Of a stretch of DNA of 64,000 nt, positions 1,037-63,618 are shown in pieces. Each line of letters begins with the position of its first letter. Positions within the stretch are counted from its first letter, which is position 1. Position numbers and translations under genes: made by a program. Source of the DNA: Candidatus Latescibacterota bacterium (lineage in GTDB: Bacteria; Latescibacterota; UBA2968; GCA-2709665); assembly GCA_963667175.2 (NCBI GenBank), contig CAXXXF010000018.1, forward strand, positions 256,001-320,000. Reading direction: 5' to 3'. Below the pieces are notes generated by a model. That model saw only the letters and a list, made by a program, of their open reading frames with translations, had not been told where the DNA came from and ran no database searches.

Positions 1037-4000
1037 TTATCCTATGACTTCCAAGAGTTCCGCTACGACCTGAAGCTCTCCCTCGTCCCTCTCCTTCAGC
1101 ACGATGGGTTGGAATTCTGGATTGTTGGGCCGGAGCGTAATGACGTCGTGCCGCCAGGATTCGCCGTATGGGATCTTCTCGCTGTGATAACGCTTGATGG
1201 TGTAGCGTTGGCCGGTTTCGGGATCGGGTGTGTCGCTCAGCTGAACCAGGACCGTCTTTCCCTGACGCGTTCCCTCGACGGGTGCACGAAATAAGCCATA
1301 CGCTCCGTCCGGGACCGCGGGTTCCATTGATCGCCCCACGATTTGCGCGACAAACATGCCCGGCCGTAGACGATAGCGAGAGTCCACGGATGCCCATTCG
1401 AATTCGCCGTCCTCGACGTGCTGCGGAGCGCCGAACGCGCCGGCGGCGGCTCTTAGCGGAACGAATGGTACACAGGTAACGTATCGTTCCTCGGGGCGGC
1501 CTTCGACCAGTCGCAGTGCGGCCGGGAATCCGTGATCTGTCACTGTTTCATCCGTTACGGCCGATTCGGTACGCAGCCGCTGATAGGCTTCGGTAGTCAT
1601 CCACTCGCGGACAGTGTGTTGGAACGAGTCGTCGTTCATATATCGCTGAAAGATCGCCTCGTTCTGATCCATGCGTTCGACGAAGATTTGATCCAACAGA
1701 CTTCTGAACACCAGTTCGAATTTGTCCTCGGGATTTACCGCTGCCGCCTGACGCATGCCATCGTCGGCAACTGCGGCCTCAACGATGTGATCGAAGAAGA
1801 GCTGGTCGGCTTGATTGAAGTCGGTCCCAAAGCGTTCGTTAACGACGTCGATCAGTTGGGAAAGCGGGACGGATTCTTCGTGTACTTCCCCGGCGCCGAC
1901 CTCTGTCGGGCCATCAAGGGCGTGCGCCTCGCCCTCCCCAAGCGAAATCGAGCCTTCGCTGATCTTCTGCAGCCGGTAGTACTCAAGCCGTACGTCATCG
2001 TCGAACTGATAGCCCGGCCCGCTACTGCGTTTCCGCAGCCTTCGCGTCAGATGTCTCAAGAACACGTGCAGGCGTTCCAGGTCCGAGTCCTGGTATGGTA
2101 TGATCTGGCTCAGAAAACCGTAGAGATTTCGGAATGCCTGAAATTGTCCGCGCAGGAGTTCCGCCGCGTCCTCGTCTTCTTCCAACCGTTTATTAAAGCG
2201 TCCAATTGCGGGATCAAGCGCGGCGTTCATCTCCTTGTGGTCTTGCACGGTCTGACGCTGCTTTGGCTTGAAATAAACGGCACAGAACAGTTCGACTTCA
2301 TCTTCCAGATAGATCCCTGACGCGTCAAGTTCGCCTTTGACCTCATACATTCGATGAGGATCTACTTCTTCTCCCATCTCCGAGCCTTCGTAGTAGACCT
2401 TAAACGCCTCCTGAATCTCCTCTCGATCGTTGACGAAGTCCAGGACGAATGTGTCCTCTTTGAGCGGATGGGTGCGATTGAGTCGCGAGAGCGTCTGAAC
2501 GGCATGAATGCCCGCGAGTCGTTTGTCAACGTACATCGTATGCAGTAACGGCTGATCGAAACCAGTTTGGTATTTCTCCGCCACCAGCAGTACCTGATAT
2601 TCCTGTGTGGCGAACTTTTCTGGGAGCTCCTTTTCACGGATGCCCTGGTTCATCTTTGCTTCCGTGTACTCGACGTCCGGTAGTTTGTCGTCTTGCACGG
2701 AACCCGAGAACGCGACAAGCGTCTTGATTGGATATTGCTTCTGCTCGATATAACGATCAAAGCTCTGCTTGTATCGCACCGCTTTGAGGCGCGAGTCTGT
2801 CACCACCATGGCCTTGGCCCGGCCGCCGATTTTGTGTCGCGTGACGGTCTGGAAATGCTCCACCATCACTTCGGTTTTCTGCGCGATGTTGTATGGATGC
2901 AGCTGCATAAAGCGAGCCAGCGCGCGCGCCGCCTGTTTCCGCTCCACGTTTGGATCGTCTTCGCGGGCCTTGAGGAGTTTGAAGTAGGTCGCGTAGGTCG
3001 TGTAATGCTCAAGCACGTCGAGGATGAATCCTTCCTCGATTGCCTGCCGCATCGTGTACTTGTGAAATTGCTCGCCGTCGCGGCCGAACACCGCAAGCGT
3101 CCTGTGTTTGGGCGTTGCCGTAAACGCAAAGAAACTCAGGTTCGCCTGCCTGCCGCGCCTGGCCATGCTGCGGAATAATTCTTCAAGATCCTCGCTCCCC
3201 GCTTCCTCAGCCTGTCTGCGTGCCTCCTCCCGCAGATCTTCTCCGCCCAGGACCTCCCTGAGATGGGTCGAGGTCTCTCCACCCTGCGAACTGTGCGCTT
3301 CGTCGACGATGACTGCACAGCGCCGCGAAGGAAGCGCGCCGGACCCCGATTCGCCTCTTTCGTCGGCCATCTTGAGCAGATGTTGTGAAACGAAAGGGAA
3401 TTTCTGAAGTGTGGTGATGATGATCGGGACCGCGTTCTCAAGGGCTTCAGCGAGTTGTCGAGACCGTTCGTCGATCTTCCGGACGACGCCATGCTTGTGT
3501 TCAAACTGGTAGATCGTGTCTTGTAGTTGCTGATCCAGGACGACGCGGTCAGTCACCACGATCACGCTATCGAAGACGCGCTCACTGTCTGTATCGTGCA
3601 GGGAAGCCAGGCGGTGCGCAAGCCAGCCGATGGTATTGCTCTTGCCGCTGCCCGCTGAGTGTTCGATGAGGTAGCTGTTCCCGACACCCTCGTCGCGAGC
3701 CGCTTTCACCAATTTCCGGACGGCATCGAGTTGGTGATAGCGCGGGAAAATCATCGACTCGACCTTAACCTTTCCGCCCATGTCGTCTCGTTTTTCCTCG
3801 GTCTGCAGATGGATATAGCGCGCGAGAACGTCGAGCAGGCTGTCGCGCTCTAACACTTCCTCCCAGAGGTATGCCGTCCGATAGTTCCGTCCGTTCGGAT
3901 CGGGTGGGTTGCCGGCCCCGTCGTCATTCCCTTTGTCGAACGGCAGGAAATGGGTCGCGTCGCCCGCCAATCGGGTGGTCATGCGGACACACTCGGTGTC

Positions 4001-4579
4001 CACCGCGAAATGTACGAGCGTCCGGCGTTTGAATTCGAAGATCGGCGCGCGGGGGTCTCGGTCACGTCGGTACTGACCGATCGCGTCCTCGACGGTCTGT
4101 CGCGTGAGCGGGTTCTTGAGTTCCACCGTAGCGACGGGGATGCCGTTCAGACAAACCGTCAGGTCGAGAGACTTCTCAGATCTGGGAGAATAATGAAGTT
4201 GGCGGGTGAGACCGAGCCGGTTGGCGGCGTAGCGGGCTTCGAGTTCCGGATTCAACTCATGAGCGGCCTTGAAGAATGCGGGATACAGCGTCCGTCCGTA
4301 GCACTTGAACCCGTGGCGCAACGTAGCGAGCGATCCGTTCGCGTCCATCCACTTGCACAGGTCATTGATAACCTGCTCACCGGTTCGATCGCCGTGAAGC
4401 GCCTCCAGCCTGGCCCATTCTTTGGATTGAGTGTCGCGGATGAACGCCAGCACCGCGTCCGGAAAGATCGCCCGGTCCCGGTCGAAACCTCCTGCGGCGA
4501 CGGTTACGTAGCCGTTCGCCAGAAGATGGGTTTCGATTACTGTTTCGAAGGCGGCTTCAGTGTGGCGGGAGTCGTTCAC
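1037..4579 (-). CDS. hsdR: Type I restriction endonuclease subunit R with C-terminal LexA/S24-like peptidase domain
   Basis: Nuclease motif VELKN, Walker [27 protein letters not shown]-terminus has RAAAG, VGRSMEP and YTIKRY (S24 Ser/Lys dyad). Confidence 0.95.
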
Positions 4580-7324: not shown

Positions 7325-8640
7325 TCGCCCAGAATCTCCAGTCGAGTGATACGCGCTTCAAGAACGGACCACTCCGGCAGGTCAAGCCCGTTCTCTTTGG
7401 CCTCTGAGATCGCGGTGTGCGCTTTCTCGAAGGTTCCTTGCGCAATCAAGTTTTCAACTGATTGAATGGCAGCCATCGCCTCCTTCGGTCGGTCATCGGC
7501 CTCCATGAGGTGGCGCAGTATCCAGTTTGAGTCCATGCCAAGGCTGCGGTCCGGATGGACAATTTCACCAGGTGCCAAGGGGTGAACCTGATCGGGCTCG
7601 ACGGACGCCACGACCTGCGGCGAGTGAGTCGTCGCGATGAACTGGCAGTTTGGAAACGTCGCGGTCAGGTTATGGACGATTTGCCTCTGCCATTTGGGGT
7701 GAAGATGCAACTCCAATTCGTCAATCAGGACGACCGCATGACCTTCACTCAGGGGATCATCTAGTGATGGATTCGCCTGGGATAATCGTCGAGCGATGTC
7801 AAGGACCAAGGCCAACAACCCACGCTCACCATCCGATAATTTCCGTACATCAAGAGTAGTTCCATCGTGGTCGACTAAGAGGCGAGGTGTTTCTTCGTCA
7901 GTTGGTCGAAGATTCTCATAGGTCGGCAGGAATCTTTCAACCGTCGATCGTAGCACCTCTATGTTTCGCTTTACCGCGGAATTCTCCACAGCAAGAATCG
8001 CCTGTGCACGCATCCAATGGGCAAAGTGTGATACATACATCGGTCGGGATACAAGGGCACCGGCGTAAGCCACTGCCATACCACCAGTTGCCATAGACTC
8101 GGTTGGACGGCGAGAAGAGAACACGGAGCGATCGGTAGAGAAGAACACGCCGTTGGGAGCCACCCGAGAGGTGTAGGCGGCGGCAGCGAAATCAGCTTCA
8201 GACGGCAGGAGGAAATCGGAATCATAAACTCCGTGAGATTCATCAAGCTCACGCAACGGCTTTACCGCCCGGTCGCGTAATCGCTCAGACTCCAAAATCT
8301 TCCTTTGGAGATTCTTTAAATTCTCTTCACTGTCAGCCGCGATCGGCTCCCTCCATTGACGCCGCGTAAAATGGAAATCTTCCTCGTTTATCGTCAGTGA
8401 CAGTTCGGCATCCAGGAACGGGAAGTCGCTTCTTATGTCTTCAATCTCAAAGGAAATCGGCTTCGCGCGAGGTTTCGGCCAACTTCTGAGTATTCTAGAT
8501 TGACAAATGCGCAACGCGTCCAAAACAGTGGTTTTCCCAACGCCGTTAACGCCGACGATCAGGTTGAATCCCGGCTGAAATAGAAATTCAGCATTTTCAA
8601 TTGCACGCAGGTTGGTTATTTTGAGACGCGTGAGAATCAT
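7321..8640 (-). CDS. ABC/AAA_21-type ATPase (PtuA/Septu-like)
   Basis: GVNGVGKT Walker A, LSDGE signature, VLIDELELHLHPKWQ, TTHSP. ATG at 8640 overlaps the hsdS stop. Confidence 0.9.
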   Translation of the reverse strand: MILTRLKITNLRAIENAEFLFQPGFNLIVGVNGVGKTTVLDALRICQSRILRSWPKPRAKPISFEIEDIRSDFPFLDAELSLTINEEDFHFTRRQWREPIAADSEENLKNLQRKILESERLRDRAVKPLRELDESHGVYDSDFLLPSEADFAAAAYTSRVAPNGVFFSTDRSVFSSRRPTESMATGGMAVAYAGALVSRPMYVSHFAHWMRAQAILAVENSAVKRNIEVLRSTVERFLPTYENLRPTDEETPRLLVDHDGTTLDVRKLSDGERGLLALVLDIARRLSQANPSLDDPLSEGHAVVLIDELELHLHPKWQRQIVHNLTATFPNCQFIATTHSPQVVASVEPDQVHPLAPGEIVHPDRSLGMDSNWILRHLMEADDRPKEAMAAIQSVENLIAQGTFEKAHTAISEAKENGLDLPEWSVLEARITRLEILGE

Positions 8641-9833
8641 GCGACGTTTCCTATATCCAGGCGCCCGGTAATTGCCGCTGAGATTAATGCGGAGCGACGC
8701 TCCTTGATCAACGAGATGGCGTTCTTCACTACGGACTGGAGTGAGTCGAGCTGCTCGATAGAAGTGGCTATCTTCCCCAGGATGACCGCCTGCTCCTTGA
8801 CCGGAGGAACCGGCACGCGCAGATTTCCGATCTCTTCGCACGTCAGCGCGCCTTTGGTTCCGCCAGCATCATCGCTGATGCTTCTAAGAAAATCGTATGC
8901 GGCAGATAATGTCCATTTCAAGAACCAAGGCAGAAGACGAGACGGGTTCGGATGAATAAATGCAAGGTGCTGATTGATGGTCGCATCGAATGAGAGAACG
9001 GCAGCCCGTCCCCTCGTTTTCCCTTGGCCAGTGATCGCCACGAGAACACTACCGCTCTTTACTTGGGGCAAGTGACATTCGTGAGCAGCTAGCTCAGTCA
9101 CGAATTGATCCGCGTGGGTGACTTCGGGGTGATTCACGACACTGCTGTTGAGCCACGGAATCCTGCCTTTATTCCAATACGCAGCATTGTTGCGGCTGGG
9201 CGTAGACCCGTTCCCGACCTCTGCGAGGTGTCCGACTTTCCAGGTTTCCCAATGCGCTGGAATCTTGCCCAGCCAGGGGATACCAGAGTCCCCTAGCAGG
9301 ACGTTTGGCTCGACGCCACGGGTGATGGCGCGGGTGATGAGTGCACGGCGTTTTTCGGCCAGCAGGGCCAGTAGCTTCTCCTTTTCCGCGATTAGCGCAT
9401 CGATCCGCGCCGTCTCGCGGTCGAGGTAATCCGCGATGGCGCGCTGTCGGGGCAGAGGCGGGACAAGCGCGTCTTTGGCGTATGCTGTTTCACGATTAAG
9501 GCCCGGAACTGCAGCTTCGTCTGTTCCTTCATCAAGCCGCAAAGTTTGAAGAAGCCAGTAGAGCCAGCGCAAGTGGTTCCGACTAGTGGATTTGTCAATG
9601 AAGAAGGTCGTATCGGATGCGAAGCAAGATTCCGCTGTCCAGTTGACCTTGCCATAGGAGCCTTTTCGTCCTATGACGATCGCTGGTGATCCAGTGTTGG
9701 CCCTTGAGGTATATCCAAATGGTCCGTTGGAACCAAACACACGGAAGCCACCATTTTGTGGTTCATCACGCGGCAATGTTTCTCCATACCCCAATCGAGC
9801 AACATATTTCAGCTTCACCCTTGGCCACATCAC
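8637..9833 (-). CDS. hsdS: Type I RM specificity subunit S
   Basis: Two TRDs with conserved PPLPRQRAIADYLD / IPAHWE / PPVKEQ segments and terminal SALISAAITG. Confidence 0.95.
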   Translation of the reverse strand: MMWPRVKLKYVARLGYGETLPRDEPQNGGFRVFGSNGPFGYTSRANTGSPAIVIGRKGSYGKVNWTAESCFASDTTFFIDKSTSRNHLRWLYWLLQTLRLDEGTDEAAVPGLNRETAYAKDALVPPLPRQRAIADYLDRETARIDALIAEKEKLLALLAEKRRALITRAITRGVEPNVLLGDSGIPWLGKIPAHWETWKVGHLAEVGNGSTPSRNNAAYWNKGRIPWLNSSVVNHPEVTHADQFVTELAAHECHLPQVKSGSVLVAITGQGKTRGRAAVLSFDATINQHLAFIHPNPSRLLPWFLKWTLSAAYDFLRSISDDAGGTKGALTCEEIGNLRVPVPPVKEQAVILGKIATSIEQLDSLQSVVKNAISLIKERRSALISAAITGRLDIGNVA

Positions 9834-11815
9834 GCCGTCACCTCCCTAAGCAGCCGGATGATTTTCTCTTCGGCCTGCTTCAGATCCGCGTCGATCTCCT
9901 CCAGCGGTCGGGGTGGCGTGTGCTTGTTGAAGTGCCGGTTGAAGTTGATCTCGTACCCGACCTTGTCCTTGCTTCTGTCCATCCAGGCTTCGGGCACATG
10001 GGGGAGGACCTCACGCTCGAAGTAGGCGTCGACGTCCTCAGCGAGCGGCACATTCTCGAAGTCTCGGAGTTCGGCGTCGGGCTCGTATTCGTTCTCTCGG
10101 CCATCCTTCCTGACCGGTTCGCCGTCCGGATCTTTAACGGTGAAGACGTCTCGGAAGAGCCTCTGTTCTACCTTCTTCCAGCGCGATTGGCGCTTATACA
10201 GGAGAGCGCTGATATTTCCCCAGGTCGCATTCCAGTCGCGCATGGGCTCGCGTCCCAACACTTTATCGATGTCCTGGACGTCATCCAGCAGGTACGGACA
10301 CGCGTCCAGGAAACGCGCTTTGTCTTCAAAGGTCATCTGGTAGCGTAGGCGCAGAGGGCGCTCCACGGTCACGCGATTATAGCCGAAGTCCTCGTTGTCG
10401 AAAATCTTCGAGCGATCACATTCCTCGAACCGACCGTAAAGTCGCACAATTTCCCCGGCATGTTCAGCGCTGATGTGCCGGCGTTTGTCGCCCAGACTGC
10501 GTCTGTTGTCGTCGCTTCCGCCGGCTGTCCACATCTCGCGGGCGTCGACCAGTTGAATCTTCCCGGTTCGGTTATCTTCCTTGCGGTTGGTGACAATCCA
10601 GATATACGTACCGATGCCCGTATTGTAGAACATCTGCTCAGGCAGGGCGATGATGGCCTCCAGCCAGTCATTTTCGATTATCCACTTGCGAATGTCGCTT
10701 TCGCCGGATCCGGCGCCGCCGGTGAAGAGGGGCGAGCCGCTGAACACAATCGCAAGGCGAGACCCATGCTTGTGCTCCTCCGGACGCAAGGGTTCGAACT
10801 TTCGGACCATGTGCTGCAGGAAAAGCATCGATCCATCGTTTACGCGGGGCAGTCCTGCGCCGAAACGGCCCGCGAAACCAAGCTTTTCGTGCTCATTGCG
10901 CACCTCGTTGCGTTGTTTCTTCCAGTCCACGCCGAAGGGGGGATTCGTAAGAAAGTAGTCAAAGGTCTCTCCGTCGAACTGGTCTTGCGTCAAACTGTCG
11001 CCGAATCGGACGTTGTCACCGCCGCCGTCGTGGTCGACCTGCTTCATCAGCGTGTCTGAAGCGGCTGTGGCAAAGGCGCGCTGGTTGTAATCCTGTCCGT
11101 AGACGTACAACCGCGCGGCACTGTGGTGCTCCCGCTGGTAGTTCTGCGCTTCGGCCAACATGCCGCCCGTGCCGCAGGCGGGGTCGAGCAGCTTGCGCAC
11201 GACGCCTGGCGTCGCGAGAAGCTCATCGTCGTTAATGAACAGAATGTTCACCATCAGTCTGATAACGTCACGTGGCGTGAAGTGATCGCCCGCGGTCTCG
11301 TTTGCCAGTTCATTGAACCGACGGATCAGATGCTCGAAGAGCAGCCCCATCTGCTCGTTGGGAACCCGGTCCGGGTGCAGATCCACGTCACAGAACTTTG
11401 AGACGATCATATAGAGGAGGTTGGCCTCTCGCATCTTCTCGATTTCAGTCTCGAACTCGAAGTACTCGAAGATGTCGCGCACGTTTTTCGAGAACCCATG
11501 GATGTAACTGACAAGGTGTTGGGCGACGTTGTCCGGGTCGCCCTTGAGTTTCTCAAAGTTTAGCGGTGAGCGGTTGTGGAAACGCTCATTGGCGGCCCTG
11601 TTCAACCTGGCTTCGAGCGCGCGACCCCTGAACCTGCCGCGAGAGCGTTCGTACTCAGCGAGCACGCCGGACCTGGTCGGTTCGAGCACGCAGTCGAACC
11701 GTCGAAGCACGGTCATGGGCAACATCACGCGCTCGTACTGCGGCGGCCGATACGGCCCACGCAGCAGGTCGGCGATGTGCCAGATCAGGTTCGCGAAGTA
11801 GCTGTGGTCAGGCAT
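9830..11815 (-). CDS. hsdM: Type I RM N6-adenine methyltransferase subunit M
   Basis: IWHIADLLRG, HFTPRDV, LDPACGTGGML, NPPF motifs. Confidence 0.97.
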   Translation of the reverse strand: MPDHSYFANLIWHIADLLRGPYRPPQYERVMLPMTVLRRFDCVLEPTRSGVLAEYERSRGRFRGRALEARLNRAANERFHNRSPLNFEKLKGDPDNVAQHLVSYIHGFSKNVRDIFEYFEFETEIEKMREANLLYMIVSKFCDVDLHPDRVPNEQMGLLFEHLIRRFNELANETAGDHFTPRDVIRLMVNILFINDDELLATPGVVRKLLDPACGTGGMLAEAQNYQREHHSAARLYVYGQDYNQRAFATAASDTLMKQVDHDGGGDNVRFGDSLTQDQFDGETFDYFLTNPPFGVDWKKQRNEVRNEHEKLGFAGRFGAGLPRVNDGSMLFLQHMVRKFEPLRPEEHKHGSRLAIVFSGSPLFTGGAGSGESDIRKWIIENDWLEAIIALPEQMFYNTGIGTYIWIVTNRKEDNRTGKIQLVDAREMWTAGGSDDNRRSLGDKRRHISAEHAGEIVRLYGRFEECDRSKIFDNEDFGYNRVTVERPLRLRYQMTFEDKARFLDACPYLLDDVQDIDKVLGREPMRDWNATWGNISALLYKRQSRWKKVEQRLFRDVFTVKDPDGEPVRKDGRENEYEPDAELRDFENVPLAEDVDAYFEREVLPHVPEAWMDRSKDKVGYEINFNRHFNKHTPPRPLEEIDADLKQAEEKIIRLLREVTA

Positions 11816-15349: not shown

Positions 15350-16648
15350 CTACAACCTTGTATTTAGGCCAGCCCTGATCGCCTTCTCTAACGCCGCGCA
15401 AAACCTTTCGTAATCCCGTAGGGATATCGGCCGATAGTGTGCCACTGCATTGCGGAGCTGGCGCGAATGGTGTACAAGTGGAAGCCATCGCTGTTCTACC
15501 TGTATATTAGGACATTTCTGCAGCAGATATTCCAAGTGTCCCCACTGACAGGCAAACGGCGTCTCTCTTACTTCCTGGCATTCTGTTTCTGTATCCGGCT
15601 CCTGCCATTTGTAAGGCCAATTCAATCCGTACGACCGGTTCAGATGAGTACATAGCACCAATCTAATCTCGTCAATCTCAGCCAGTAGGAATCCCGCTTG
15701 ACCTCGCCACAATCGATGATCCAATGTTTCCTTTTGATCCAATAGAGCTAAGACTGCGCTATGGCGTTCCAGCCCATATTCCGGAGTCCAATGGACCATT
15801 CCCCGAGCCCAAATCTTATACATTGAATTTGGTAATGCCCAATCCTCTTGCCAAAGTGTGGGATTTCGAGAATGGCTATGTAAAGGCCAATCCTCCAATT
15901 CCGTCCGATCCCATCCACGTTGCTGACCATAAGCCCGCAGTAGGTGCGCTAATTCCGCTCTATCGCTATACACTTGAGACCAAAGATAATCTGCCAAATC
16001 TATATCAGAGCCCGCAATGGCCGGAATCGTGTGCTCTTTCCATCGGCTTAAGGGACCGGTATCCTGATCGGATGCCAGGCGACACAGGAGTCGCATCTCC
16101 AATGTCGTGGGGATGCCTCTCCAAGGACGGATAGAAAGGAATACATTAGTTTCGGGAAGTGGGTAATGTACTTGAGACGCATGGGCTATCAAACAAAACG
16201 CCGGGAAGATTTCGACTCCATCTTCGTCGGTGGAGTGCATTCCTTGACAAACCTGCGCCCACTGCACCACAAAGCGAAGCCACTTTACTCGATCTTCTTC
16301 TTCCAGTTGATCAAACCCATCGAGAAACAGGATTTCCGGCAAGTCTGCTCGTTTCAGTAGATTCTCAACTGTCCTCGGCGTGGAGGATGCACCCCAATCT
16401 ACTCCGAGAGCCTGGCCCAAAGCTGCAGCCGGCGTTTGGACGTCTAACTGTGATATGAGGATCTGGTCAATCTGTAAGTGCCAGTGGTCGAGTCCTTCCC
16501 TCAAGGCCAACCGCAACATACTTGGATCGATACCATCGGGAAACAGAACCAAAACACTTCGGGCATGCCGTAAGTCGTCCTGTATCAGTTCCAACAAATG
16601 CCGGACGGTCGGCAGTTGCATCATGTAGGTGGTCAGTTCCAAGCTCAT
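15350..16648 (-). CDS. Hypothetical protein, possibly an inactive STAND-like domain (partner of giant ATPase)
   Basis: 432 aa, ATGA-type overlap with the upstream gene; Walker-B-like ILFLDGFD with no Walker A; C-terminal RNAVAH (HEPN-like RxxxxH). Confidence 0.7.
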   Translation of the reverse strand: MSLELTTYMMQLPTVRHLLELIQDDLRHARSVLVLFPDGIDPSMLRLALREGLDHWHLQIDQILISQLDVQTPAAALGQALGVDWGASSTPRTVENLLKRADLPEILFLDGFDQLEEEDRVKWLRFVVQWAQVCQGMHSTDEDGVEIFPAFCLIAHASQVHYPLPETNVFLSIRPWRGIPTTLEMRLLCRLASDQDTGPLSRWKEHTIPAIAGSDIDLADYLWSQVYSDRAELAHLLRAYGQQRGWDRTELEDWPLHSHSRNPTLWQEDWALPNSMYKIWARGMVHWTPEYGLERHSAVLALLDQKETLDHRLWRGQAGFLLAEIDEIRLVLCTHLNRSYGLNWPYKWQEPDTETECQEVRETPFACQWGHLEYLLQKCPNIQVEQRWLPLVHHSRQLRNAVAHYRPISLRDYERFCAALEKAIRAGLNTRL

Positions 16649-19600
16649 AGAGGGCTAACTATTCGACCTATGACGGACTCAACGCGGTACTCTCCATCCC
16701 TTTTTTCGAGGCATCCCATCCGGGTCAAGAACTCCACAGCCAACTTGCAGTCCTCTAACGTGAGAGGAGGAGTTCCTTCCACCAGATCTCCCAAAGTCTC
16801 CAAATCCTCTTCTGAGACTTTGTCACATTCGACTAAAGTCCGTACTACTCGGCGAGACTCCGCCCGGGAATCCAAACCGACCTGCTGCAACAGCTTAGAG
16901 CCCAACTTGGATCCCGGACTGGCAACCTCCTCGATCAGACTTTTCGCATGAGATCGGGGGTCGTCATGGTCGCCGCACCGGCGCAAAAGGTCATCCAGCA
17001 AGAATGGCCACCCCCCGGTGGCCTCCAGCACCTTCCGGCAAATCTCGGGCGAATCCAGCTTATCGGCCTGGCTCAATCGCTGTTGAATTCCGACTTCGTT
17101 CCACCGACGCAGGTAAATGGAGTCAGTCCCATCCTCGAGGCCGGTACGCTGATCCGCAGGTAATCTCAGCCAGGTCCAGGCAGCCTCCGGTTTGAGGACA
17201 AAAACGACCCGTAGGGGCCGCCTACCCCTTTGGTTAAAATCCCCGCACATCAGCGATACTTTCCAGACGTATCGGGCCATATCGCCTCCTGTGCCCCTGA
17301 GCCGACCATAAGTCAATAACTGCTCGAACCCTCGTTGCTTTTTGGCGTGGGCGTCCAACCATGCACAGGTTCGATTGGCCTGGCTCAATTCTTGAGCAGG
17401 AATCTCACTGCCACCCATACGGTCTAAAGCCTGGTCCAACGCGTCCAGTCCCAATGCCTGGGAGCCAAAGACTAGACTCACGCCGGATGCCCCGGATTGT
17501 TGGATGCGGCCTTCTTCTACTAACGTCAACGGACTGTATCTGAGGCCCTGGTCACCCAATAGTACGTGCTGACTATCGGGCTGAAACTGGGTGGGCTGAG
17601 ATTTTTCCGATAGCTCCAACAGACGACTTTCTATATCCTCCTCGGTACCCATCATGCGGACGAGATTGGGACTGCGTAGCATGTATTGATTCTCATCCTG
17701 GTTGTGTACCAATATGCCCAGACCGACCATTTCTCCTAATAGTCCTCTCAAGGCTTCGGTGTGGACGTCATCGAAACCTTGAGGCCACCACTCTCGCGCC
17801 CGTTGGAGAAGCTCGTTCACGCTGAATGAACGGACATAGCTGTCTCGCGTCTCTTTTTGCTCATAGATCATGGACCACGCGATACACTGATATCGTGGAT
17901 CCAATTGCAGAGTCCAATCGAGCCGTTCCCGAATGACCTTTCGAGCTTGAGGCAAGCGATACACGGCCTCGACATCCTCCGAGCGCACTTTGTAAGGCGG
18001 TCCGGTAATGGACCTCTTGGCTTGCAGGCGGCGCACGAGTTCATGGCAGAAATACTGTATCAAACCGGGATGGTAGTTGGTGTAGGACAAAACTTTGAGC
18101 ACTGTGGTCTCATCAACGAACCGGTAACCCAGCGTCTCCAGAGGTTCCCGCACCAGGTCCCGGGCGGAACTGGCTTCGAGAGGTCCCACCAGTAAATTCT
18201 CGCCGAAGTGCGCCAAAGGCTGGTTGGGGATATCATTAAACCTTTGGACGTTGTGCAGTCCGGCAAAGACCACCTTGAAGCGAGATTGAGTATCCTGCAT
18301 TAGGGATCTCAGTCTTTCGACGACTTGGAAGCTGTTTTGAGCATCGGCACCCAGGAAGGAATCGGCTTCATCAAGCAGGACGAGAACACGCCGCTGCGGA
18401 GCCACATCCATTGCGTTTTGGATGTGGCTTATGATTCTGTCAGGTTGAGACGCCGCTATCCGCTCTCCGATTAGTGAGTGTTTCTTAAAGCCATCACGCA
18501 ATTTTATCCACAGTAGATCGGGCTGTTCGCCTGCCAGGGCATCACCCACCAGCTTGATGTCTTGGACCCAGGCATACCGCTCGTGATCTGGCTCGTGAAA
18601 CGTACGCTCTACCTGGCGCAATAGTGCGGACTTGCCCAACTGTCGCCCACCGAATACGATGCAGTTACCCTCGTTTTGTAGCTGACGCACCATTTTGTCG
18701 CGACCATAGTACATTTCAGGCGGTACGTTTCCTGCCTGGAACGGCGTATAGGGATTCAAAGCAGCGTAGGGCAAACTACAACGCAGGAAAGCTGGAAGGC
18801 GGGTATCGTCAAGCCTGGCCAGGAATGCCAGTAGGACCTCATCGAGCACCACGAGAGCCAATTCTCGTTGCCCGGCACGCGTGGCTATGTCTCCTCGTCG
18901 CCGTTCAGTCAATCGTCCGAGGAAAAAAACGATGACAGTCTTGGTATCCAGTCCTATTTCACGCAAAAAAGCTCCGATAGAGGCGGCACCAGGGCGTTCC
19001 CACAGACATACCACATCGTAGCGGCCATTGGCTTGCGAGCCCAGTTGAGGGATCGGCCGCGCGAGGTCGCTGGCCGATGCATCTACTTCGCAGTGGAGCC
19101 AATCCCGGCCTCGATTCTTCACTTTGACAGCCGATTCTCTTTCCGGTAGATGAAAACCAAGATATGCCAACAAGTTTGGTACATGCCGATGAGCAACTGT
19201 TGGCTGGTCCTGATGTCGCTTAAGCATGTGCCAGGATCGAAAGGCCCTGACGACTTCATCTCGGCGGGTTTTTGGTAACTCACCGAACGCCACCTTTTCC
19301 CAAGTTTTGCCTTTTTCAACCTCACGGGCCAATTGATTGACATTCCCCAAGCTTGCAAGCCCCGATTCAATACCTGGACTTGCATTCTTGAACTCACTTA
19401 AGTAGTCGCGTTCGGAAGGTGGGGCTAACCAGGCACTATCCCATTCAACCTCACCCTGGAGGACTTCGCGCAGGTGGGCTAAGCCTTCTTCGACGACTCT
19501 GGTATCGCCCTGTTTAAAGGATTTCTGAATAAACGCCTTCAAGGCTTTCATTTGGTCGACTTCGATCTTTTGCAATAGGCCTTGCCGCATTTCCTTCCAT

Positions 19601-21942
19601 TGACTTTTCAACTCTTGCAATCGGTCTGCGCGTTTCTGGTTCAATTGGTGCTCAATATCGTCCAGTCGTCGGAACAGAGGCTCGAAGCACATGGGCTCTT
19701 CAATCTCCGCTGTTTCCAATTCAGCGCTGAGACCGGTACGTTCTTCTTCAACCAGTAGCCCGTCGACCATTCCCTGTTCGATTGCGCCCCGTACGCTGGC
19801 GACCTTATCCGCAAGAGCCGCTCGGGCACCCTTGAGCGCCTCGTCGTTTCGATCCTCGAACTCTTGACGTTCGTCATCGTCATTCAACGCATTCCGCAAT
19901 ATATCGGCGAATCGAAAATCCTGCCCTTCAATGTGCATGGTACAGGCTGCATTAAGTGCGCGTTCCTCGGCCAGGGACTGCCGCAAGAACGTGGCAATAT
20001 CTGCCTCTTGATCCTCTCCAAGAAAGCCGTGGTCGTCCAGGGAAACTTCAGGGAGCCACAACAGGCGTCTCGTTAACGCCTGTTTCAGTGAGCCGCTTTC
20101 GCGCTGCATCCATGCTTGAGGATCTTCATTATCGGCTTGCCCCTCTAAACCCAACAATCGGGTTACTTGGCCTATAGCCAGGTGCAAAACGCGGGCACAT
20201 GCGGCTTCTTGTTCGGCTTGTTCCTGCTGTTGCATGCGATCGAGTTCGGATGTGACATCTGGCAAGATTGCTTGTATTTGGTCACGCAATTCCCTTACAA
20301 GATCGGTCCACCAGTCGCCGTTGGTGTTGATCACCTCACTCTTCTTAATCAAGGAACACCAGTGGTCGGCCAACGTCACAGCGTCTTCTATGCTGCGTAC
20401 CAATTGGTCTCGCGGAACTCCGGTGATCGGTCTGGAGGGACGCCCTGGCGTTAACTCACGGTCAATCTGGTGAATGCGGTCCTCAATCTTGCGGCCTTTG
20501 AGTTCTCTTACTCGCTGTCGGATCTTTTCGATTTCGTCGGTATGGTTATTACTCACCGGATACAATAGTTGCCCCAAATCTCCGTCTCGGTTCACCAATC
20601 GTCGGAGGACGTTTGTCGCCCTTACCATTTTTAGTCTACGGACCTTATTGTTCTCCAATAGGCTACCCGCTCTCGTAGCTGTCTCTTCAATGCCGTCTGA
20701 TAAATCTGCCTGATGTTCTACGCCAAGTAAATCGTCCCGCTGCAAAGGATAACCTGCGCGGGTAAACGCACGAATTGCATCAGCCAGCCTGCCGAAAGGG
20801 GAATCAACCTCATCTCTTTGTGGAAGCCAACTGGTCAATCCGGTGTACGGGGCAATTAAGGCGGGACGAATTGCCGCAGCCAATCCTAAAACTCGCTCGG
20901 CGTTATTTTTAGGTGCCAGATCCGTTGTAATGTCTTTGATAGCGTGGACCAAACTGTCAGCATCGTCTTCCAACCAACGCGAGCCTTGAAGCACGGCAAG
21001 CAATTCAGGCGCGACGGGTACGTTTCGGCCTCTTGCTTTCAACGAAAGAGCAAGCCAATAGGCGCCTGCCCAATCCTCTTCAGCCAACAGGCTCCAGCCC
21101 AGCGATTCCCAGTTCTCATCGGAGTCGTCCTCTTGCAATTGCATCGCCGCGTCGCGAACCGAACGCAACTTTGCCGACCTTTTTACGGGGTGCTGGAGTG
21201 TTGAAGGGGCGGGCTCGCTCTGCTTCGGTTCGGACTCGTCTGGCTTGTCTGAAAGTTCGCCTTCGGCATCTTGCTGGTTGGAACTGGTTTCCTCTTTAGA
21301 TTCGTCTGCGGGGGGACGAGCGTCTTTCTTGGCCGGTTGCTCCTCATCAGAACCAGGGTGTTCATCAGACGGACCTTTTCCGGGTTCAGGGGGATCCGTG
21401 TCGGGTTCATCGTCGTCTTGGGTGTCCTCTTCCGGGGTCTGTTGTGGCTCCGGTTCGGCTTCTGCAAACTCCTGTTCGAGTTGTTTTGCGAGTAAGTTTA
21501 TTCGATCTTCCGTGTCGTTCAAGTCCGTCCGATGCTTGCGGGTCTCCTGGAAGTTTTCAGGCGTTTCCTGCTTTAACATACGAAGCCCATTTAGCTGCTC
21601 CAGCAGATTTACGGCTATTTTCGCACGCCTTGGAACCTGATCAGCAGGGCAACTGGCCGCTTGCCAATTGGCTATGCCGAGGCTTTCGAATCCAAAAAAC
21701 GCTATCTCACCGGCGTAGTCGTCTCGCAATTGGTCCAATGTCTGTTGGAGATGGAGCCGCCCCGCTTTCTTCTGTTCGTCGCACTTGTGCTCGGCGAGGA
21801 GCCGTACCTTTTCGACGAATCCTTCGACCTGGTCTGTTTCCCATTCCGAAGCATCCGAAGGCCACTCGCGCAGTTCCTCAATAACGCTGGCCCATCGCGT
21901 ATCGTTCAGGCTCTCGCCATTCTGTTTCTTGACATCGCTCAT
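16645..21942 (-). CDS. Giant (~1765 aa) STAND/AAA-type NTPase with long helical N-terminus
   Basis: NPY..G..MYYGR, Walker A GGRQLGKS, Walker B VLLDEAD, YTNYHPGLIQ (GxP-like). Second degenerate module near the C-terminus (ATGGWPFLL). GAGG RBS. Confidence 0.85.
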   Translation of the reverse strand: MSDVKKQNGESLNDTRWASVIEELREWPSDASEWETDQVEGFVEKVRLLAEHKCDEQKKAGRLHLQQTLDQLRDDYAGEIAFFGFESLGIANWQAASCPADQVPRRAKIAVNLLEQLNGLRMLKQETPENFQETRKHRTDLNDTEDRINLLAKQLEQEFAEAEPEPQQTPEEDTQDDDEPDTDPPEPGKGPSDEHPGSDEEQPAKKDARPPADESKEETSSNQQDAEGELSDKPDESEPKQSEPAPSTLQHPVKRSAKLRSVRDAAMQLQEDDSDENWESLGWSLLAEEDWAGAYWLALSLKARGRNVPVAPELLAVLQGSRWLEDDADSLVHAIKDITTDLAPKNNAERVLGLAAAIRPALIAPYTGLTSWLPQRDEVDSPFGRLADAIRAFTRAGYPLQRDDLLGVEHQADLSDGIEETATRAGSLLENNKVRRLKMVRATNVLRRLVNRDGDLGQLLYPVSNNHTDEIEKIRQRVRELKGRKIEDRIHQIDRELTPGRPSRPITGVPRDQLVRSIEDAVTLADHWCSLIKKSEVINTNGDWWTDLVRELRDQIQAILPDVTSELDRMQQQEQAEQEAACARVLHLAIGQVTRLLGLEGQADNEDPQAWMQRESGSLKQALTRRLLWLPEVSLDDHGFLGEDQEADIATFLRQSLAEERALNAACTMHIEGQDFRFADILRNALNDDDERQEFEDRNDEALKGARAALADKVASVRGAIEQGMVDGLLVEEERTGLSAELETAEIEEPMCFEPLFRRLDDIEHQLNQKRADRLQELKSQWKEMRQGLLQKIEVDQMKALKAFIQKSFKQGDTRVVEEGLAHLREVLQGEVEWDSAWLAPPSERDYLSEFKNASPGIESGLASLGNVNQLAREVEKGKTWEKVAFGELPKTRRDEVVRAFRSWHMLKRHQDQPTVAHRHVPNLLAYLGFHLPERESAVKVKNRGRDWLHCEVDASASDLARPIPQLGSQANGRYDVVCLWERPGAASIGAFLREIGLDTKTVIVFFLGRLTERRRGDIATRAGQRELALVVLDEVLLAFLARLDDTRLPAFLRCSLPYAALNPYTPFQAGNVPPEMYYGRDKMVRQLQNEGNCIVFGGRQLGKSALLRQVERTFHEPDHERYAWVQDIKLVGDALAGEQPDLLWIKLRDGFKKHSLIGERIAASQPDRIISHIQNAMDVAPQRRVLVLLDEADSFLGADAQNSFQVVERLRSLMQDTQSRFKVVFAGLHNVQRFNDIPNQPLAHFGENLLVGPLEASSARDLVREPLETLGYRFVDETTVLKVLSYTNYHPGLIQYFCHELVRRLQAKRSITGPPYKVRSEDVEAVYRLPQARKVIRERLDWTLQLDPRYQCIAWSMIYEQKETRDSYVRSFSVNELLQRAREWWPQGFDDVHTEALRGLLGEMVGLGILVHNQDENQYMLRSPNLVRMMGTEEDIESRLLELSEKSQPTQFQPDSQHVLLGDQGLRYSPLTLVEEGRIQQSGASGVSLVFGSQALGLDALDQALDRMGGSEIPAQELSQANRTCAWLDAHAKKQRGFEQLLTYGRLRGTGGDMARYVWKVSLMCGDFNQRGRRPLRVVFVLKPEAAWTWLRLPADQRTGLEDGTDSIYLRRWNEVGIQQRLSQADKLDSPEICRKVLEATGGWPFLLDDLLRRCGDHDDPRSHAKSLIEEVASPGSKLGSKLLQQVGLDSRAESRRVVRTLVECDKVSEEDLETLGDLVEGTPPLTLEDCKLAVEFLTRMGCLEKRDGEYRVESVIGRIVSPL

Positions 21943-22049
21943 ATACAATCCTCAATATAGGATTCGTCTAGATTCCTGTATCATTTCGCGGTCTCATCTA
22001 CCCCGGAGTGACGACACCCTCATCCGCCAACGCTGCGGCATAGCAAATC

Positions 22050-22304: not shown

Positions 22305-22382
22305 CTTATCCTGTTAATCCCGTTATTCCTGCTAATCCTGATCGCTCTTCGGTTTTCATCCTGTCCATCCTGTGCATCCATG
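22305..22382 (+). repeat. Degenerate ~9-nt tandem repeat (ATCCTGTNN), the intron target site
   Basis: ATCCTGTTA ATCCCGTTA TTCCTGCTA ATCCTG ... ATCCTGTCC ATCCTGTGC ATCCATG. Confidence 0.75.
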
Positions 22383-23144
22383 GTGCGCCGTGAAAGGCGC
22401 GGAACTCCAGTGGGTGAGAGTCCCACCCGACAAATGTTGCTACAGTCGGTAGCAACCGGAGCGGGGGTGAAGGTAACGACATCTCCGAAGCCTCCGGTGT
22501 AAAGGGTCGCAAGGCGACTCGGCGAGTATGCGGGCCGAAACGTGCAGTGAACGCTGAGCAGGCCTCGAAAAAGGTAATGCGGGAGCCGACCCGCCCATGG
22601 ATCGGGGAAGGCCGCCGTCGTTGGAAAAAGAGAGCAACGCGTGCATCCAACGGTCCCGCCGGGGTAATGGCGAAGGCACGTATACAAGGGGTTCCGACGC
22701 AACACGGGAAGCCCCAGCGGTGGTGAATAGACACCAACCGGACGCCCGTGAGGGACAGGCCGGGCCGTATGGGGTGGCGGACAGGCTCGTAGTACCCGTG
22801 AAGCCGGGTAACGCCGGTGGAGGGAAGGGGCCTGACTTCGGATGTGCTTGCGAAGGGGACAACTGTCGGGAGAGTGGCGCAAGCCTATTACCTCCTCTAA
22901 AAGTAGATGAGGCGACTCCGGAACAAGCTTGGGCTTCAGGTGAAGCTGTCCGGGCAGTGCGGGCAGCGTGTGCCTGAAGGCGACGTCCGTCGGAGAGCCG
23001 GATGCGGGAAACCCGCACGTCCGGTTCGACGAGCGGGATGTGGAAACGGAGCACGGAGCGGCTATTGAGGCACCGCCAGACGAAAGGGGCGGAAACAGAT
23101 AAGAAGGGCCACTCCTAAACCACCGCGCCACATCCCGACTCTAC
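22383..23144 (+). ncRNA. ORF-less group II intron (762 nt)
   Basis: 5' GTGCG; domain V GAGCCGGATGCGGGAAACCCGCACGTCCGGTTC (22995-23027); long domain VI ending CGACTCTAC; DIII GTAGTACC..TGAAGCCGGGTAAC..GGAGGGAAGG; EBS1 CATGGAT pairs with exon ATCCATG; DIV only ~150 nt. Confidence 0.93.
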
Positions 23145-23179
23145 TAAGTTCCCGCTTATGAGTTGAAGGGGTTACACCC

Positions 23180-24478
23180 TCAATCCGCGGGGACCATTTC
23201 CGGCGCTTTGCATGCGAAGACGTCGATGGGCGGGAGATTGCGGTCGGGGCCGAGTTCGAGTTGGCGGGGGCCGACCAGGATGTCCAGGTTGTCCCGCATT
23301 TCGGCCATGTCAAGGTAGGCGGTGGAGGCTTCGACTTCGCCCAGGTCGAGGGTATTCTTGATCCAGAGCACTTTGGCATCGCACGGCTCGATAAGCCCGA
23401 TGGATTCCAACCCGATCTGCAGGACTTCCTCGTCGGTGGGGAAGTGCATGGGGATGGAGGCAGCGGGCGGATGCTGCCCCGTAATGGCGTTGATATTCGT
23501 CGCATAGTGGTCGATTTTCTCCACCAGCCGGTCCGTGGTGAATTCGGCCATACCCACGCCCACCGCGTTGCCATGGGTCTTTTCCGTGAGGTCCCGGACG
23601 AAGATCCGCAGCACGCGAGGCGTGTCGCCGTCCGCCGCGCGGCGTTCGTTGCGCTTGCGCCCCACCACGTTCGTATCGATGCCGGAGCCGCTGATGTCTT
23701 TGCCCATCTCGTCGATGATCAGCAGGTCCACGTCGTCGAAGGGCAGGCGGGGACACCAGGCCTTGGCCTTGACCAGAAGCTCCTTCTCGGCGCTTTCGAA
23801 GTCGGCGGCGGGAACCGCCGCGATCTGCGCGGTCTCGTCATAGCCGTTTTCGAGCAGGGCGACGCCGAACGTGATGGGCATTTTTTCCCGGACGGACTTG
23901 CCCACAACGCGAACGATCTTGTCGAACGAGTGATGGATGATGGCGCGGTGATAGATCGTCGCACCCTTGTGCTTTCCCAGGCCGATGAGCATCATTTTCA
24001 TCAGGCCGCTTTCGATCTCGCCCACGAAGCCCGTGTGGGGCTTCACGCGGTTGACGACGACCACGTGGTCGGCCTCGGAGGCGCATTTGTCGAAGTAGAC
24101 CGGCATGCCGAAATCCGTGACGTCGATCTCGACAACCTCCATCGAGGATTTGACGGGCGCGCCCACGGTTTCTTCGGTGATTCCGTATTCGGCGAGAATC
24201 CCGGCCTGGCCTTCGGCCGTGCCGCCGCCGTGACTGCCCATCGCGGGAACGATAAAGGGCCTGGTGCCCAGCGCGACCATCTCTCTGACGATCGTCGCAA
24301 TGACCGTGTCGAGGTTCGCGATGCCCCGCGAACCCGCGGCGATCGCGACGCTATGCCCGGGCCTGATGGTGTCACCGGGGTTGAGGTTTCGGATTTCACG
24401 GCGCGTGTCTCCCGGTATGTCGTCCACGCGCGGCGCGTCGAACCGCTGGCGGAGCCGGAACATGTGGGGATATTGCAT
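23180..24478 (-). CDS. LarA-like (nickel-pincer racemase domain / DUF2088) protein
   Basis: AGSRGI, PAMGSHGGGTAEGQ, NRVKPHT, ESGLMKM..IGLGK motifs; GGAGG RBS. Confidence 0.8.
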   Translation of the reverse strand: MQYPHMFRLRQRFDAPRVDDIPGDTRREIRNLNPGDTIRPGHSVAIAAGSRGIANLDTVIATIVREMVALGTRPFIVPAMGSHGGGTAEGQAGILAEYGITEETVGAPVKSSMEVVEIDVTDFGMPVYFDKCASEADHVVVVNRVKPHTGFVGEIESGLMKMMLIGLGKHKGATIYHRAIIHHSFDKIVRVVGKSVREKMPITFGVALLENGYDETAQIAAVPAADFESAEKELLVKAKAWCPRLPFDDVDLLIIDEMGKDISGSGIDTNVVGRKRNERRAADGDTPRVLRIFVRDLTEKTHGNAVGVGMAEFTTDRLVEKIDHYATNINAITGQHPPAASIPMHFPTDEEVLQIGLESIGLIEPCDAKVLWIKNTLDLGEVEASTAYLDMAEMRDNLDILVGPRQLELGPDRNLPPIDVFACKAPEMVPAD

Positions 24479-24562
24479 TTGGGGCCTCCGGAGGTAGAGG
24501 TCGTAAGTCAGCAAATGATCTCGTTGCAGGCGCCGCCGCCGTCGATCGGATTCGACGAAAAC

Positions 24563-26196: not shown

Positions 26197-26769
26197 GGAG
26201 CGCGGGGCCTGCCACAGGCACAGCGCGAACACCCTCACAGGATGCACAGGATCCTCTGCCCTGAGACCCGCGGCGGCACATCGATCCGCGTCGCTGGACG
26301 GATCAGCGCGCTCTGCTCTGGTAGTGCTCCGGTCAGTTCTTCCCTTCGTAGTCTGATTGGTGTCTGAATAATGAGCGCAGCTGGTGGCGATCAGCTCCAA
26401 GCCGTCAGTTTGAATCACACCTGTCCAAAATCGGTTTCAGTCTTGGACAGCATCTGGTTCACTTCCGCGAAGCAATCCCTCGACCAAGATTGCCTGAGAT
26501 TCACAAAGTGCTTATTTCACGGGCTTATTGAGACGGAAACAGCACAATTATGGCCGCTGGAAACGTCACCTTGTTCTTGGACAGCATTGCGCAGACGATG
26601 GCAAACCTGGTTTTCATTATCCGGGTCAAACCCGTCCAAAATCGCCTATTGTAGCCATTTTTCGAACCTTATCTCTGGGAATCCGACGGTTCTTGGACAG
26701 CAGTGAGTTTGAATCAAATGCCGAATCAGTCGACACCAGCGCCGTGAAGTGGCAGGACCAATACGGCCG

Positions 26770-63081: not shown

Positions 63082-63618
63082 CGCGCCATCCTCCCCATTC
63101 ATGGACCGGTGAGTAATCGCGGCTCGCTTGCCGGAAAGGTACTGTGCCGAAGCCGTGACACTTAAAGACGTCGTCTGGATCAAGCCAATGCGCCTGGGAT
63201 GCGGGCGACAGGTTATCACGGGGAGCACCGTATAGTTTACATCCTCCCAATCTCCTTTGGTGGGCCTGGATGTCGACTATTTGCTTCTCCTGCGAATAAG
63301 TGGAAGCTGACAACTGCTCTTCCTGATCACTGGCCACTGCCCACTATTTACTGCTCTTGGTGATAATATACGACTACGACGGCAAAAGTGAGAACCAAAG
63401 ATGAACCGGCCGCGGTTTCAGATTGCGCGTGTTGCACGAGTTGTCTTTCTCTATCCGCGTCAGGTACCTATATTGTAGAACGGGAGGCGGTTCCCCGTCA
63501 AGCGACCGCGATCTATTATACGAGTCGTCCACGAAATATCGAATCTACATCCTGAATGAACTCACCTCGACCGCCTTCGGGGGAATCAATTGGCGGTTTT
63601 GCGGAGGATGGCGAGGCG

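Follow-up and report, generated by a model that had tools for sequence, protein, structure and literature searches.

The 64,000-nucleotide stretch of DNA analysed here, referred to as the window, carries at positions 22383-23144 of the plus strand a 762-nt group II intron that lacks an open reading frame (ORF) and is very probably a non-autonomous, IIB-like element, one that retains the full set of ribozyme domains I-VI, has lost its RT gene, is helped in trans and homes into a repeat. We infer its splicing, the help in trans and the priming route from sequence comparison. All coordinates given below refer to the window and to its plus strand unless stated otherwise.

A BLAST search of the 762-nt intron against its own genome (5.52 Mb, 18 contigs) returned 39 segments, and the genome census comprises a single family of 26 full copies, of which 16 are ORF-less and 10 contain the ORF, plus two 5' fragments. 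The ORF-less copies include (i) subfamily A, to which the window copy belongs, with three mutually identical copies of 762 nt (100% identity to the window copy), (ii) subfamily B, with five mutually identical copies of 758 nt (98%), (iii) subfamily C, with seven copies of 761 nt (91%), and (iv) one interrupted C copy of 1059 nt; the ORF-containing copies are divided into F1 (four copies, 1978-1979 nt) and F2 (six copies, 1976 nt). The D5/D6 model has 26 matches in the genome, each of them one of the 26 full copies, so that no second group II intron family was detected. The three identical A copies and the five identical B copies lie in differing flanks, as expected from recent activity and spread. 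The original prediction had named a single decayed copy as the outcome that would speak against it; what the genome holds is a family of 26, with three identical A copies. The 1059-nt C copy, located in another contig, contains within its domain IV (DIV) one copy of a MITE of 284 nt, whose inverted ends read CTGTCCAA...TTGGACAG; another copy of this MITE lies in the window at 26421-26704, and about 20 occur in the genome at 90-100% identity. In addition, an F2 copy with its ORF lies 719 nt past the window end (G000:C18:320719-322694), with an empty A-type target about 300 nt away.

The window copy begins with GTGCG at 22383 and terminates in CTCTAC at 23144, and the 5' GUGYG and 3' AY rule holds in 26 of the 26 copies. 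The ribozyme hallmarks originally recognised in the letters within 762 nt are recovered by Infernal with two Rfam models, each with one match, no other match in the 64 kb reaching its gathering score: (i) RF02003 (group-II-D1D4-4), covering part of domain I at 22408-22545 with 102.3 bits (E 1e-21; cut-off 49), and (ii) RF00029 (D5/D6), covering 22993-23144 with 45.4 bits (cut-off 40). When RF00029 was run again on the complete genome, D6 was aligned over a shorter length and the window copy came out at 39.7 bits, slightly below the cut-off of 40. The 3' boundary is independent of the RF00029 alignment, since CTCTAC terminates all 26 genome copies, with unrelated flanks beyond it, and since 22382 is fused directly to 23145 in contigs from other sequencing runs.

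Domain V (22995-23027), placed by the RF00029 alignment and the fold, contains the AGC triad at 22996-22998, and domain VI (23031-23141), placed by the fold, presents the bulged branch A at 23138, which is base 7 when counted back from the 3' end. The predicted fold of domain VI comprises a basal helix that is extended distally by about 85 nt; this extension is common to distant kin, as the D5/D6 match spans 113-152 nt in eight of ten relatives from other phyla, compared to 77 positions in the model. The D5 loop is formed by five nucleotides with no GNRA tetraloop, a family-wide feature that includes the ORF-containing copies and that counts against the preferred reading of the element. The consensus fold of domains I-III, obtained from 15 sequences, comprises 125 pairs, with 98.9% of the cells paired and 17 pairs showing compensatory changes, figures that lean towards the structure because it was predicted from the same alignment. 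The RNA can be classed as IIB-like from its predicted EBS1/IBS1, EBS2/IBS2 and EBS3/IBS3 pairings, the last located away from EBS1.

Compared to the ORF-containing copies, against which its extent was measured, domain IV is reduced to 155 nt (22834-22988), close to the roughly 150 nt of the original prediction; as that prediction also held, no ORF with RT similarity was found within 22383-23144. The ORF-containing copies align to intron positions 1-451 and 607-762 and display, in place of the 155 nt, a segment of 1376 nt. In BLAST comparisons, the ORF-less DIV resembles F1/F2 at their common borders and over 14 nt that remain from the beginning of the ORF, where the start codon used to be, but nowhere else, and a simple deletion of the F1/F2 ORF as the origin of the 155-nt DIV was rejected on these grounds. 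Since only this short, DIVa-like stretch recalls the F1/F2 ORF start, the reduced DIV may not have kept the site to which the protein binds, a point against help in trans. Since A, B and C have one DIV in common, the ORF was lost once, before the three subfamilies split. The ORF-less form, DIV included, is shared by seven or more other species of the genus and has more divergent representatives in two genera beyond it; the DIV is almost unchanged across nine ORF-less sequences from seven genomes.

The RT/maturase (IEP) frame is open in all ten ORF-containing copies and comprises 463 codons, 441 aa from the first ATG. Its translation contains a readable YADD motif and the domains RVT_1 and GIIM, followed by nothing further and with no endonuclease (En) domain, and scores 360 bits against NCBIfam TIGR04416 (group II RT/maturase; cut-off 300). 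The closest relatives of the IEP are recorded as Candidatus Latescibacterota; the nearest solved structures are En-less IIC RTs, whereas the intron RNA itself is not IIC-like.

The guide elements connect the intron to its target. EBS1 (CATGGAT, 22596-22602) occupies a hairpin loop on the stem GACCCG...CGGGG and forms 7 bp with IBS1 (ATCCATG, 22376-22382), a complementarity already contained in the original prediction and now strengthened by covariation across three subfamilies and relatives. The EBS1 loop reads (i) CCCATGGAT in A, B and F1, with 5' exons terminating in ATCCATG, (ii) ATTGTCAGC in C, with 5' exons terminating in GCTGACA, and (iii) CCTGAATTT in F2, with 5' exons terminating in ..ATTCA. 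A δ-δ' pairing of the IIA type beside EBS1 was also considered and set aside, as it suits the C type only and not the window copy. EBS3 is an A at 22667 (intron position 285) that pairs with the first 3'-exon base; its column shows three-state covariation, A, T and G facing T, A and C-or-T, respectively, at 3'-exon position +1, which identifies intron position 285 and the first 3'-exon base as the predicted EBS3/IBS3 pair of IIB-type introns.

For EBS2, 10 relatives from other genomes were added to the alignment, giving 15 sequences in all. The covarying site is AGGT at 22572-22575 (intron positions 190-193), which changes together with exon positions -14 to -11 in seven other target types, or eight if one shifted by 1 nt is included: CGUU faces AAUG or AACG in C, and GGGU faces ACCU or GCCU in F2, while in the relatives the EBS2/exon combinations are AGGU/GCCU (relative 1), GGGU/ACCU (relative 2), AGGC/GCCU (relative 3), GGGC/GCCU (relative 4), GUGU/ACAC (relative 5) and, shifted by one, AGCU/GGCU (relative 6). 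The register of this family-wide covariation indicates that CCT at 22369-22371 (exon -14 to -12) is probably the IBS2 of the window copy, with three nucleotides paired; as AGGU meets only CCU (3 bp), EBS2 adds little in the window's subfamily. The EBS2 of the original prediction, GCAGG, is complementary to CCTGT, yet it is invariant in 15 of 15 sequences whatever the target, and was therefore rejected.

An IEP-encoding relative in the genome, whose existence the original prediction had anticipated, is thus present in ten copies with open frames, and the four F1 copies among them have the same EBS1, EBS2 and EBS3 as the window intron; with all three guide elements in common, F1 is the most likely source of help. 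The C type has no ORF-containing copy with its guide in this genome. A and F1 differ at two positions in the block 145-300, which contains EBS2, EBS1 and EBS3, versus 23 in the other 296 positions (Fisher p = 0.004, for a block picked after looking at the data), a pattern found in no other pair. A reasonable reading of these sequences is that the targeting block 145-300 was exchanged between the ORF-less and the ORF-containing lineages.

The 5' exon (22308-22382) is a T-rich intergenic repeat that ends in ATCCATG and contains 9-nt units ATCCTGTNN, delimited by TRF at 22308-22340 and 22357-22379, in line with the tandem-repeat exon first described; the 3' exon (23145-23179) starts with TAAGTT, its T at 23145 being IBS3, and ends at the stop codon of a LarA-like gene. 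The target, defined as ATCCTGYNNATCCATG or ATCCTG[TC]NNATCCATG, occurs 48 times in the genome, the window site included, nine times occupied by an intron and 39 times empty, with T as the next base. Conservation around the insertion point covers a core from about -35 to +30, with T-rich sequence on the upstream side; in one target subfamily the repeat measures about 120 nt, and a few of these repeats continue for about 200 nt more and take in the F2-type site. AG at +3/+4 is present at nine of nine occupied sites versus 16 of 39 empty ones, and none of 14 TTTG sites is occupied, both comparisons being post hoc and made among related repeats. According to a codon-usage gene caller, checked on Pfam-supported genes and known to miss some genes of low-GC islands, 45 of the 48 sites fall between genes and 35 are followed by a gene in the same orientation. 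The abundance attributed to the repeat at the outset is borne out by these counts; its description as a non-coding safe landing pad agrees with the 45 intergenic sites and may understate a repeat that often lies just upstream of co-oriented genes. The related inverted motif noted earlier near 26237-26253 consists of two repeat units ACAGGATGCACAGGAT (ATCCTGTGCATCCTGT on the minus strand) at 26238-26253, minus strand; they form no target, as ATCCATG does not come next, and are weak evidence alone, given 972 ATCCTGT in the genome.

The C subfamily occupies a different target, a separate MITE-like element of about 155 nt with inverted ends, of which eight copies are occupied and eight are empty with the exact site, while at least four further unoccupied ones, among the elements listed, carry a mutated IBS1. 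An empty element of this type lies in the window at 63214-63365, with the insertion point after 63312 and the ends TATCACGGGGAGC...CTCTTGGTGATA. The genome also contains a second repeat family with near-identical ends. Short palindromic elements, GCCTGCCTG...CAGGCAGGC, occur in peripheral loops of four intron copies of related genomes (L031, L037, L038 and L040) and inside the ATCCTGT repeat that forms the 5' exon of the B copy G000:C2:290477; their 9-mer is found 636 times in this genome, both strands counted.

The copies with the CATGGAT guide lie after TCCATG in 12 of 12 cases, after ATCCATG in 10 and within the ATCCTGYNNATCCATG repeat in nine, so that the expectation that other copies follow the repeat holds for these nine and fails for three, which lie in unrelated DNA and whose flanks share only (A/G)TCCATG with the target. 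With IBS1 alone in common at three of 12 sites, targeting is leaky. Joining the flanks of one ectopic copy in silico restores a 1190-codon frame on the opposite strand, the halves of which match SIR2_2 and DUF4020, and the same operation on a second copy restores an 862-codon frame, also on the opposite strand. At least two ectopic copies are therefore antisense insertions into genes, which splicing cannot repair. The contrast with these gene-breaking copies supports the view of the repeat as a harmless landing place. The first of the two interrupted frames, at G000:C18:36534-40295, is defence-like in its SIR2_2/DUF4020 architecture, and the antisense intron within it (positions 1501-2262 of that locus) is identical to the window copy.

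In the window, the intron is flanked by two genes of the minus strand, and it is hence antisense to its local genes: the convergent LarA-like gene (23180-24514), whose stop codon lies 36 nt from the intron, and a gene for a 1767-aa AAA-type protein (16645-21948), with Pfam matches to AAA_22 and AAA_16 alone. The latter is preceded by a 432-aa ORF in a block of lower GC (15350-21948, minus strand), and the two may constitute a defence gene pair. To the left of the site, the GC content is 0.47-0.58 and the genes include a type I restriction system, a transposase fragment and large ATPase genes, whereas to the right it is 0.60-0.66 up to 56 kb and the four Pfam-named genes to 31 kb are all metabolic. 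The intron site, at about 22 kb, does lie on a compositional and functional boundary, as the original prediction of an island edge had it. The restriction system comprises HsdS and HsdM genes at 8640-11815 and, at 1040-4579 on the minus strand, an HsdR-like protein of 1180 aa with a C-terminal Peptidase_S24 (LexA-like) domain.

Contigs of other sequencing runs bear on the occupancy of the site. In a contig of run X1, the left flank is matched in 283 of 283 bases and the match ends at the intron border, and in the DNA runs X1 and X3 as well as in the RNA-library run X16 the right flank is fused to the repeat end without the 762 nt. These joints are moderate evidence for an empty allele of the site in related populations, as the matching side covers only 19-27 nt; because they also occur in DNA runs, they denote an empty allele and not spliced RNA. 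A 1376-letter joint was also seen in run contigs at the position of the reduced domain IV. Among six RNA-library runs, considered as contigs only, the share of sampled words was 0.31 in X2, 0.18 in X16 and at most 0.10 in the other four. Where a single sample provided both RNA and DNA runs, the two gave similar ratios of intron to flank depth, and the data examined gave no sign of plus-strand transcription of the intron. No sigma-70-like promoter was found around the site; TAAGTTTG might be read as a Bacteroidetes-like -7 box. Across the genome, the sense strand of the intron is the locally G-rich one in 18 of 26 copies, a weak replication-strand bias, judged by GC skew, that is confounded by gene orientation and drawn from draft contigs.

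The C copies lend themselves to a reading in which the ORF-less introns have no retromobility and are immobile relics multiplied by duplication or recombination of their carrier repeats, for they all lie in one element of about 155 nt, with flanks that agree for about 100 nt to one side and for 52 nt to the other, and such a composite element could in principle transpose with the intron as passenger. We regard this as very improbable, given that (i) identical A and B copies occur in unrelated DNA, with only TCCATG common to the three ectopic sites, (ii) flank likeness ends at the short repeat, (iii) eight empty C-type elements retain the exact site and at least four unoccupied ones, among the elements listed, carry a mutated IBS1, (iv) guide and target covary, and (v) the window site has an empty allele. 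Equally hard to sustain is the proposal that the intron is no parasite and is a splicing-only, host-serving regulatory element in the leaders of downstream genes. The position of the repeat before co-oriented genes at 35 of 48 sites, and of a co-oriented gene 32-393 nt downstream at six of the nine occupied repeat sites, is what this proposal would lead one to expect, but at the window site both neighbours are on the other strand, ectopic copies break ORFs in antisense, occupancy varies between related populations and the copies are identical, as after recent spread.

A mobile intron settling in a repeat of independent origin remains the preferred reading, and the distribution of the target motif agrees with it. 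The motif was found in 14 of 14 searched genomes of the genus, in 10-94 copies each, in two of four other genera searched in the family (12 and 4 copies) and in two of the 12 genomes taken from the neighbouring family (14 copies in one, 1 in the other), in each case with a reversed control of 0, and is a property of the host lineage. One genome of the genus, G008, has 30 motifs and gave no intron match among the eight scored of 30 first-look candidates. The similarity of the 9-nt units ATCCTGTNN to IBS1 ATCCATG might suggest that the repeat is a footprint of repeated intron insertion and loss and no independent host repeat, but the motif's presence in all 14 genus genomes (10-94 copies, reversed control 0), the 30 motifs of G008 with no intron among the eight candidates scored and a conserved core reaching from -35 to +30 around the site make this the least credible reading of all.

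The surroundings of the repeat permit a further, speculative proposal, to which we give only a minor chance: the ATCCTGT...ATCCATG repeat would be a genus-wide promoter-proximal or leader module placed before accessory genes (toxin-antitoxin, ATPase and restriction-type genes in low-GC islands), the intron would have specialised on it in the sense orientation, and the ORF-less lineage would have taken over, by recombination, the 145-300 targeting block of its helper. Another contig has a low-GC island where the motif precedes an AAA_15/AAA_21 ATPase gene by 44 nt and a Phd-PIN pair by 122 nt. At locus L042 (G000:C17:98000-105700), 5.7 kb of a low-GC island display, with one mismatch allowed, ten target motifs, eight on the plus and two on the minus strand; they alternate with small genes, among them a Phd-PIN pair and an AbiEii/OLD-like ATPase, in an arrangement suggestive of a cassette array whose upstream module is repeated. 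If the leader-module proposal is true, sense insertion would provide the intron with transcription and with harmless removal from the leader; if the capture of the targeting block is true, the ORF-less intron would be a parasite of a parasite, able to follow the targets of its helper.

Taken as a mobile, trans-dependent element, the window intron would operate as follows. The RT/maturase of ORF-containing relatives in the same genome would bind the ORF-less RNA and aid its splicing, and the resulting particle would reverse-splice into DNA that pairs with EBS2, EBS1 and EBS3. As the IEP has no endonuclease domain, replication forks would presumably supply the primer for cDNA synthesis, as they do for other introns that lack En. 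The preferred site would be ...CCT..N..ATCCATG|T within the genus-wide intergenic repeat, and owing to this intergenic location insertions would mostly break no gene.

Several known systems share parts of this behaviour. IIC and IIC-attC introns insert after terminators or attC hairpins and, like the window intron, use abundant non-coding sites as landing places. In contrast, the window intron would recognise a sequence motif, with no hairpin, through EBS1/EBS2/EBS3 pairing, and is distinguished by its D1-D4-4 match and by EBS2, an element that is not known from IIC introns. RmInt1 targets an IS element and uses the replication fork. RmInt1 and its relatives from Sinorhizobium combine an En-less IEP with IIB-like RNA (PMC4615759, PMC4181065, PMC5894124) and resemble the window family in (i) an IEP of RT and maturase domains only, (ii) an RNA that uses EBS1, EBS2 and EBS3, and (iii) homing into a repeated genome element, with high copy number and diverged target specificity. 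RmInt1 is autonomous, unlike the window intron, and the likeness concerns domains and guides, not the class placement of the IEP.

The closest parallel is the pair formed by TeI3 (ORF-less) and TeI4 (ORF-containing) from Thermosynechococcus elongatus, present in 17 versus 11 copies (Mohr, Ghanem and Lambowitz 2010, PMC2882425), for which help from related IEPs has been demonstrated. In both cases, one genome harbours one proliferated family with an ORF-less majority (17/11 there, 16/10 here), the ORF-less copies are all of one DIV deletion form, EBS/IBS have diverged among subfamilies and the copies lie mostly outside genes. The systems differ in that (i) help from related IEPs was shown for TeI3/TeI4, whereas we infer it for the window family, (ii) TeI3/TeI4 retain clear remnants of both ORF ends, compared to about 14 nt of the ORF start here, (iii) the IEP of the window family is En-less, (iv) its main targets are dispersed repeat families instead of other introns, and (v) its ORF-less lineage extends across at least seven other species and two further genera. 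The hosts also differ, a thermophilic cyanobacterium there and a member of the uncultured phylum Latescibacterota here, the window family being known from sequence alone.

[quoted passage not shown] A literature search, supplements aside, listed no paper on group II introns that home into repeats of the MITE or REP type, and the papers listed in a further search for Latescibacter and group II introns carry neither term in title or abstract. The system is of a kind already known, and it does not change the known mechanism. It adds a second natural, apparently active, proliferating ORF-less system to the sole well-studied one met here, which comes from a thermophilic cyanobacterium. The family numbers 26 copies, most of them ORF-less, shows three or more target specificities and has a lineage common to several species; it offers material for studying how non-autonomous introns persist, how they are retargeted and how dispersed host repeats steer the settlement of a retroelement.
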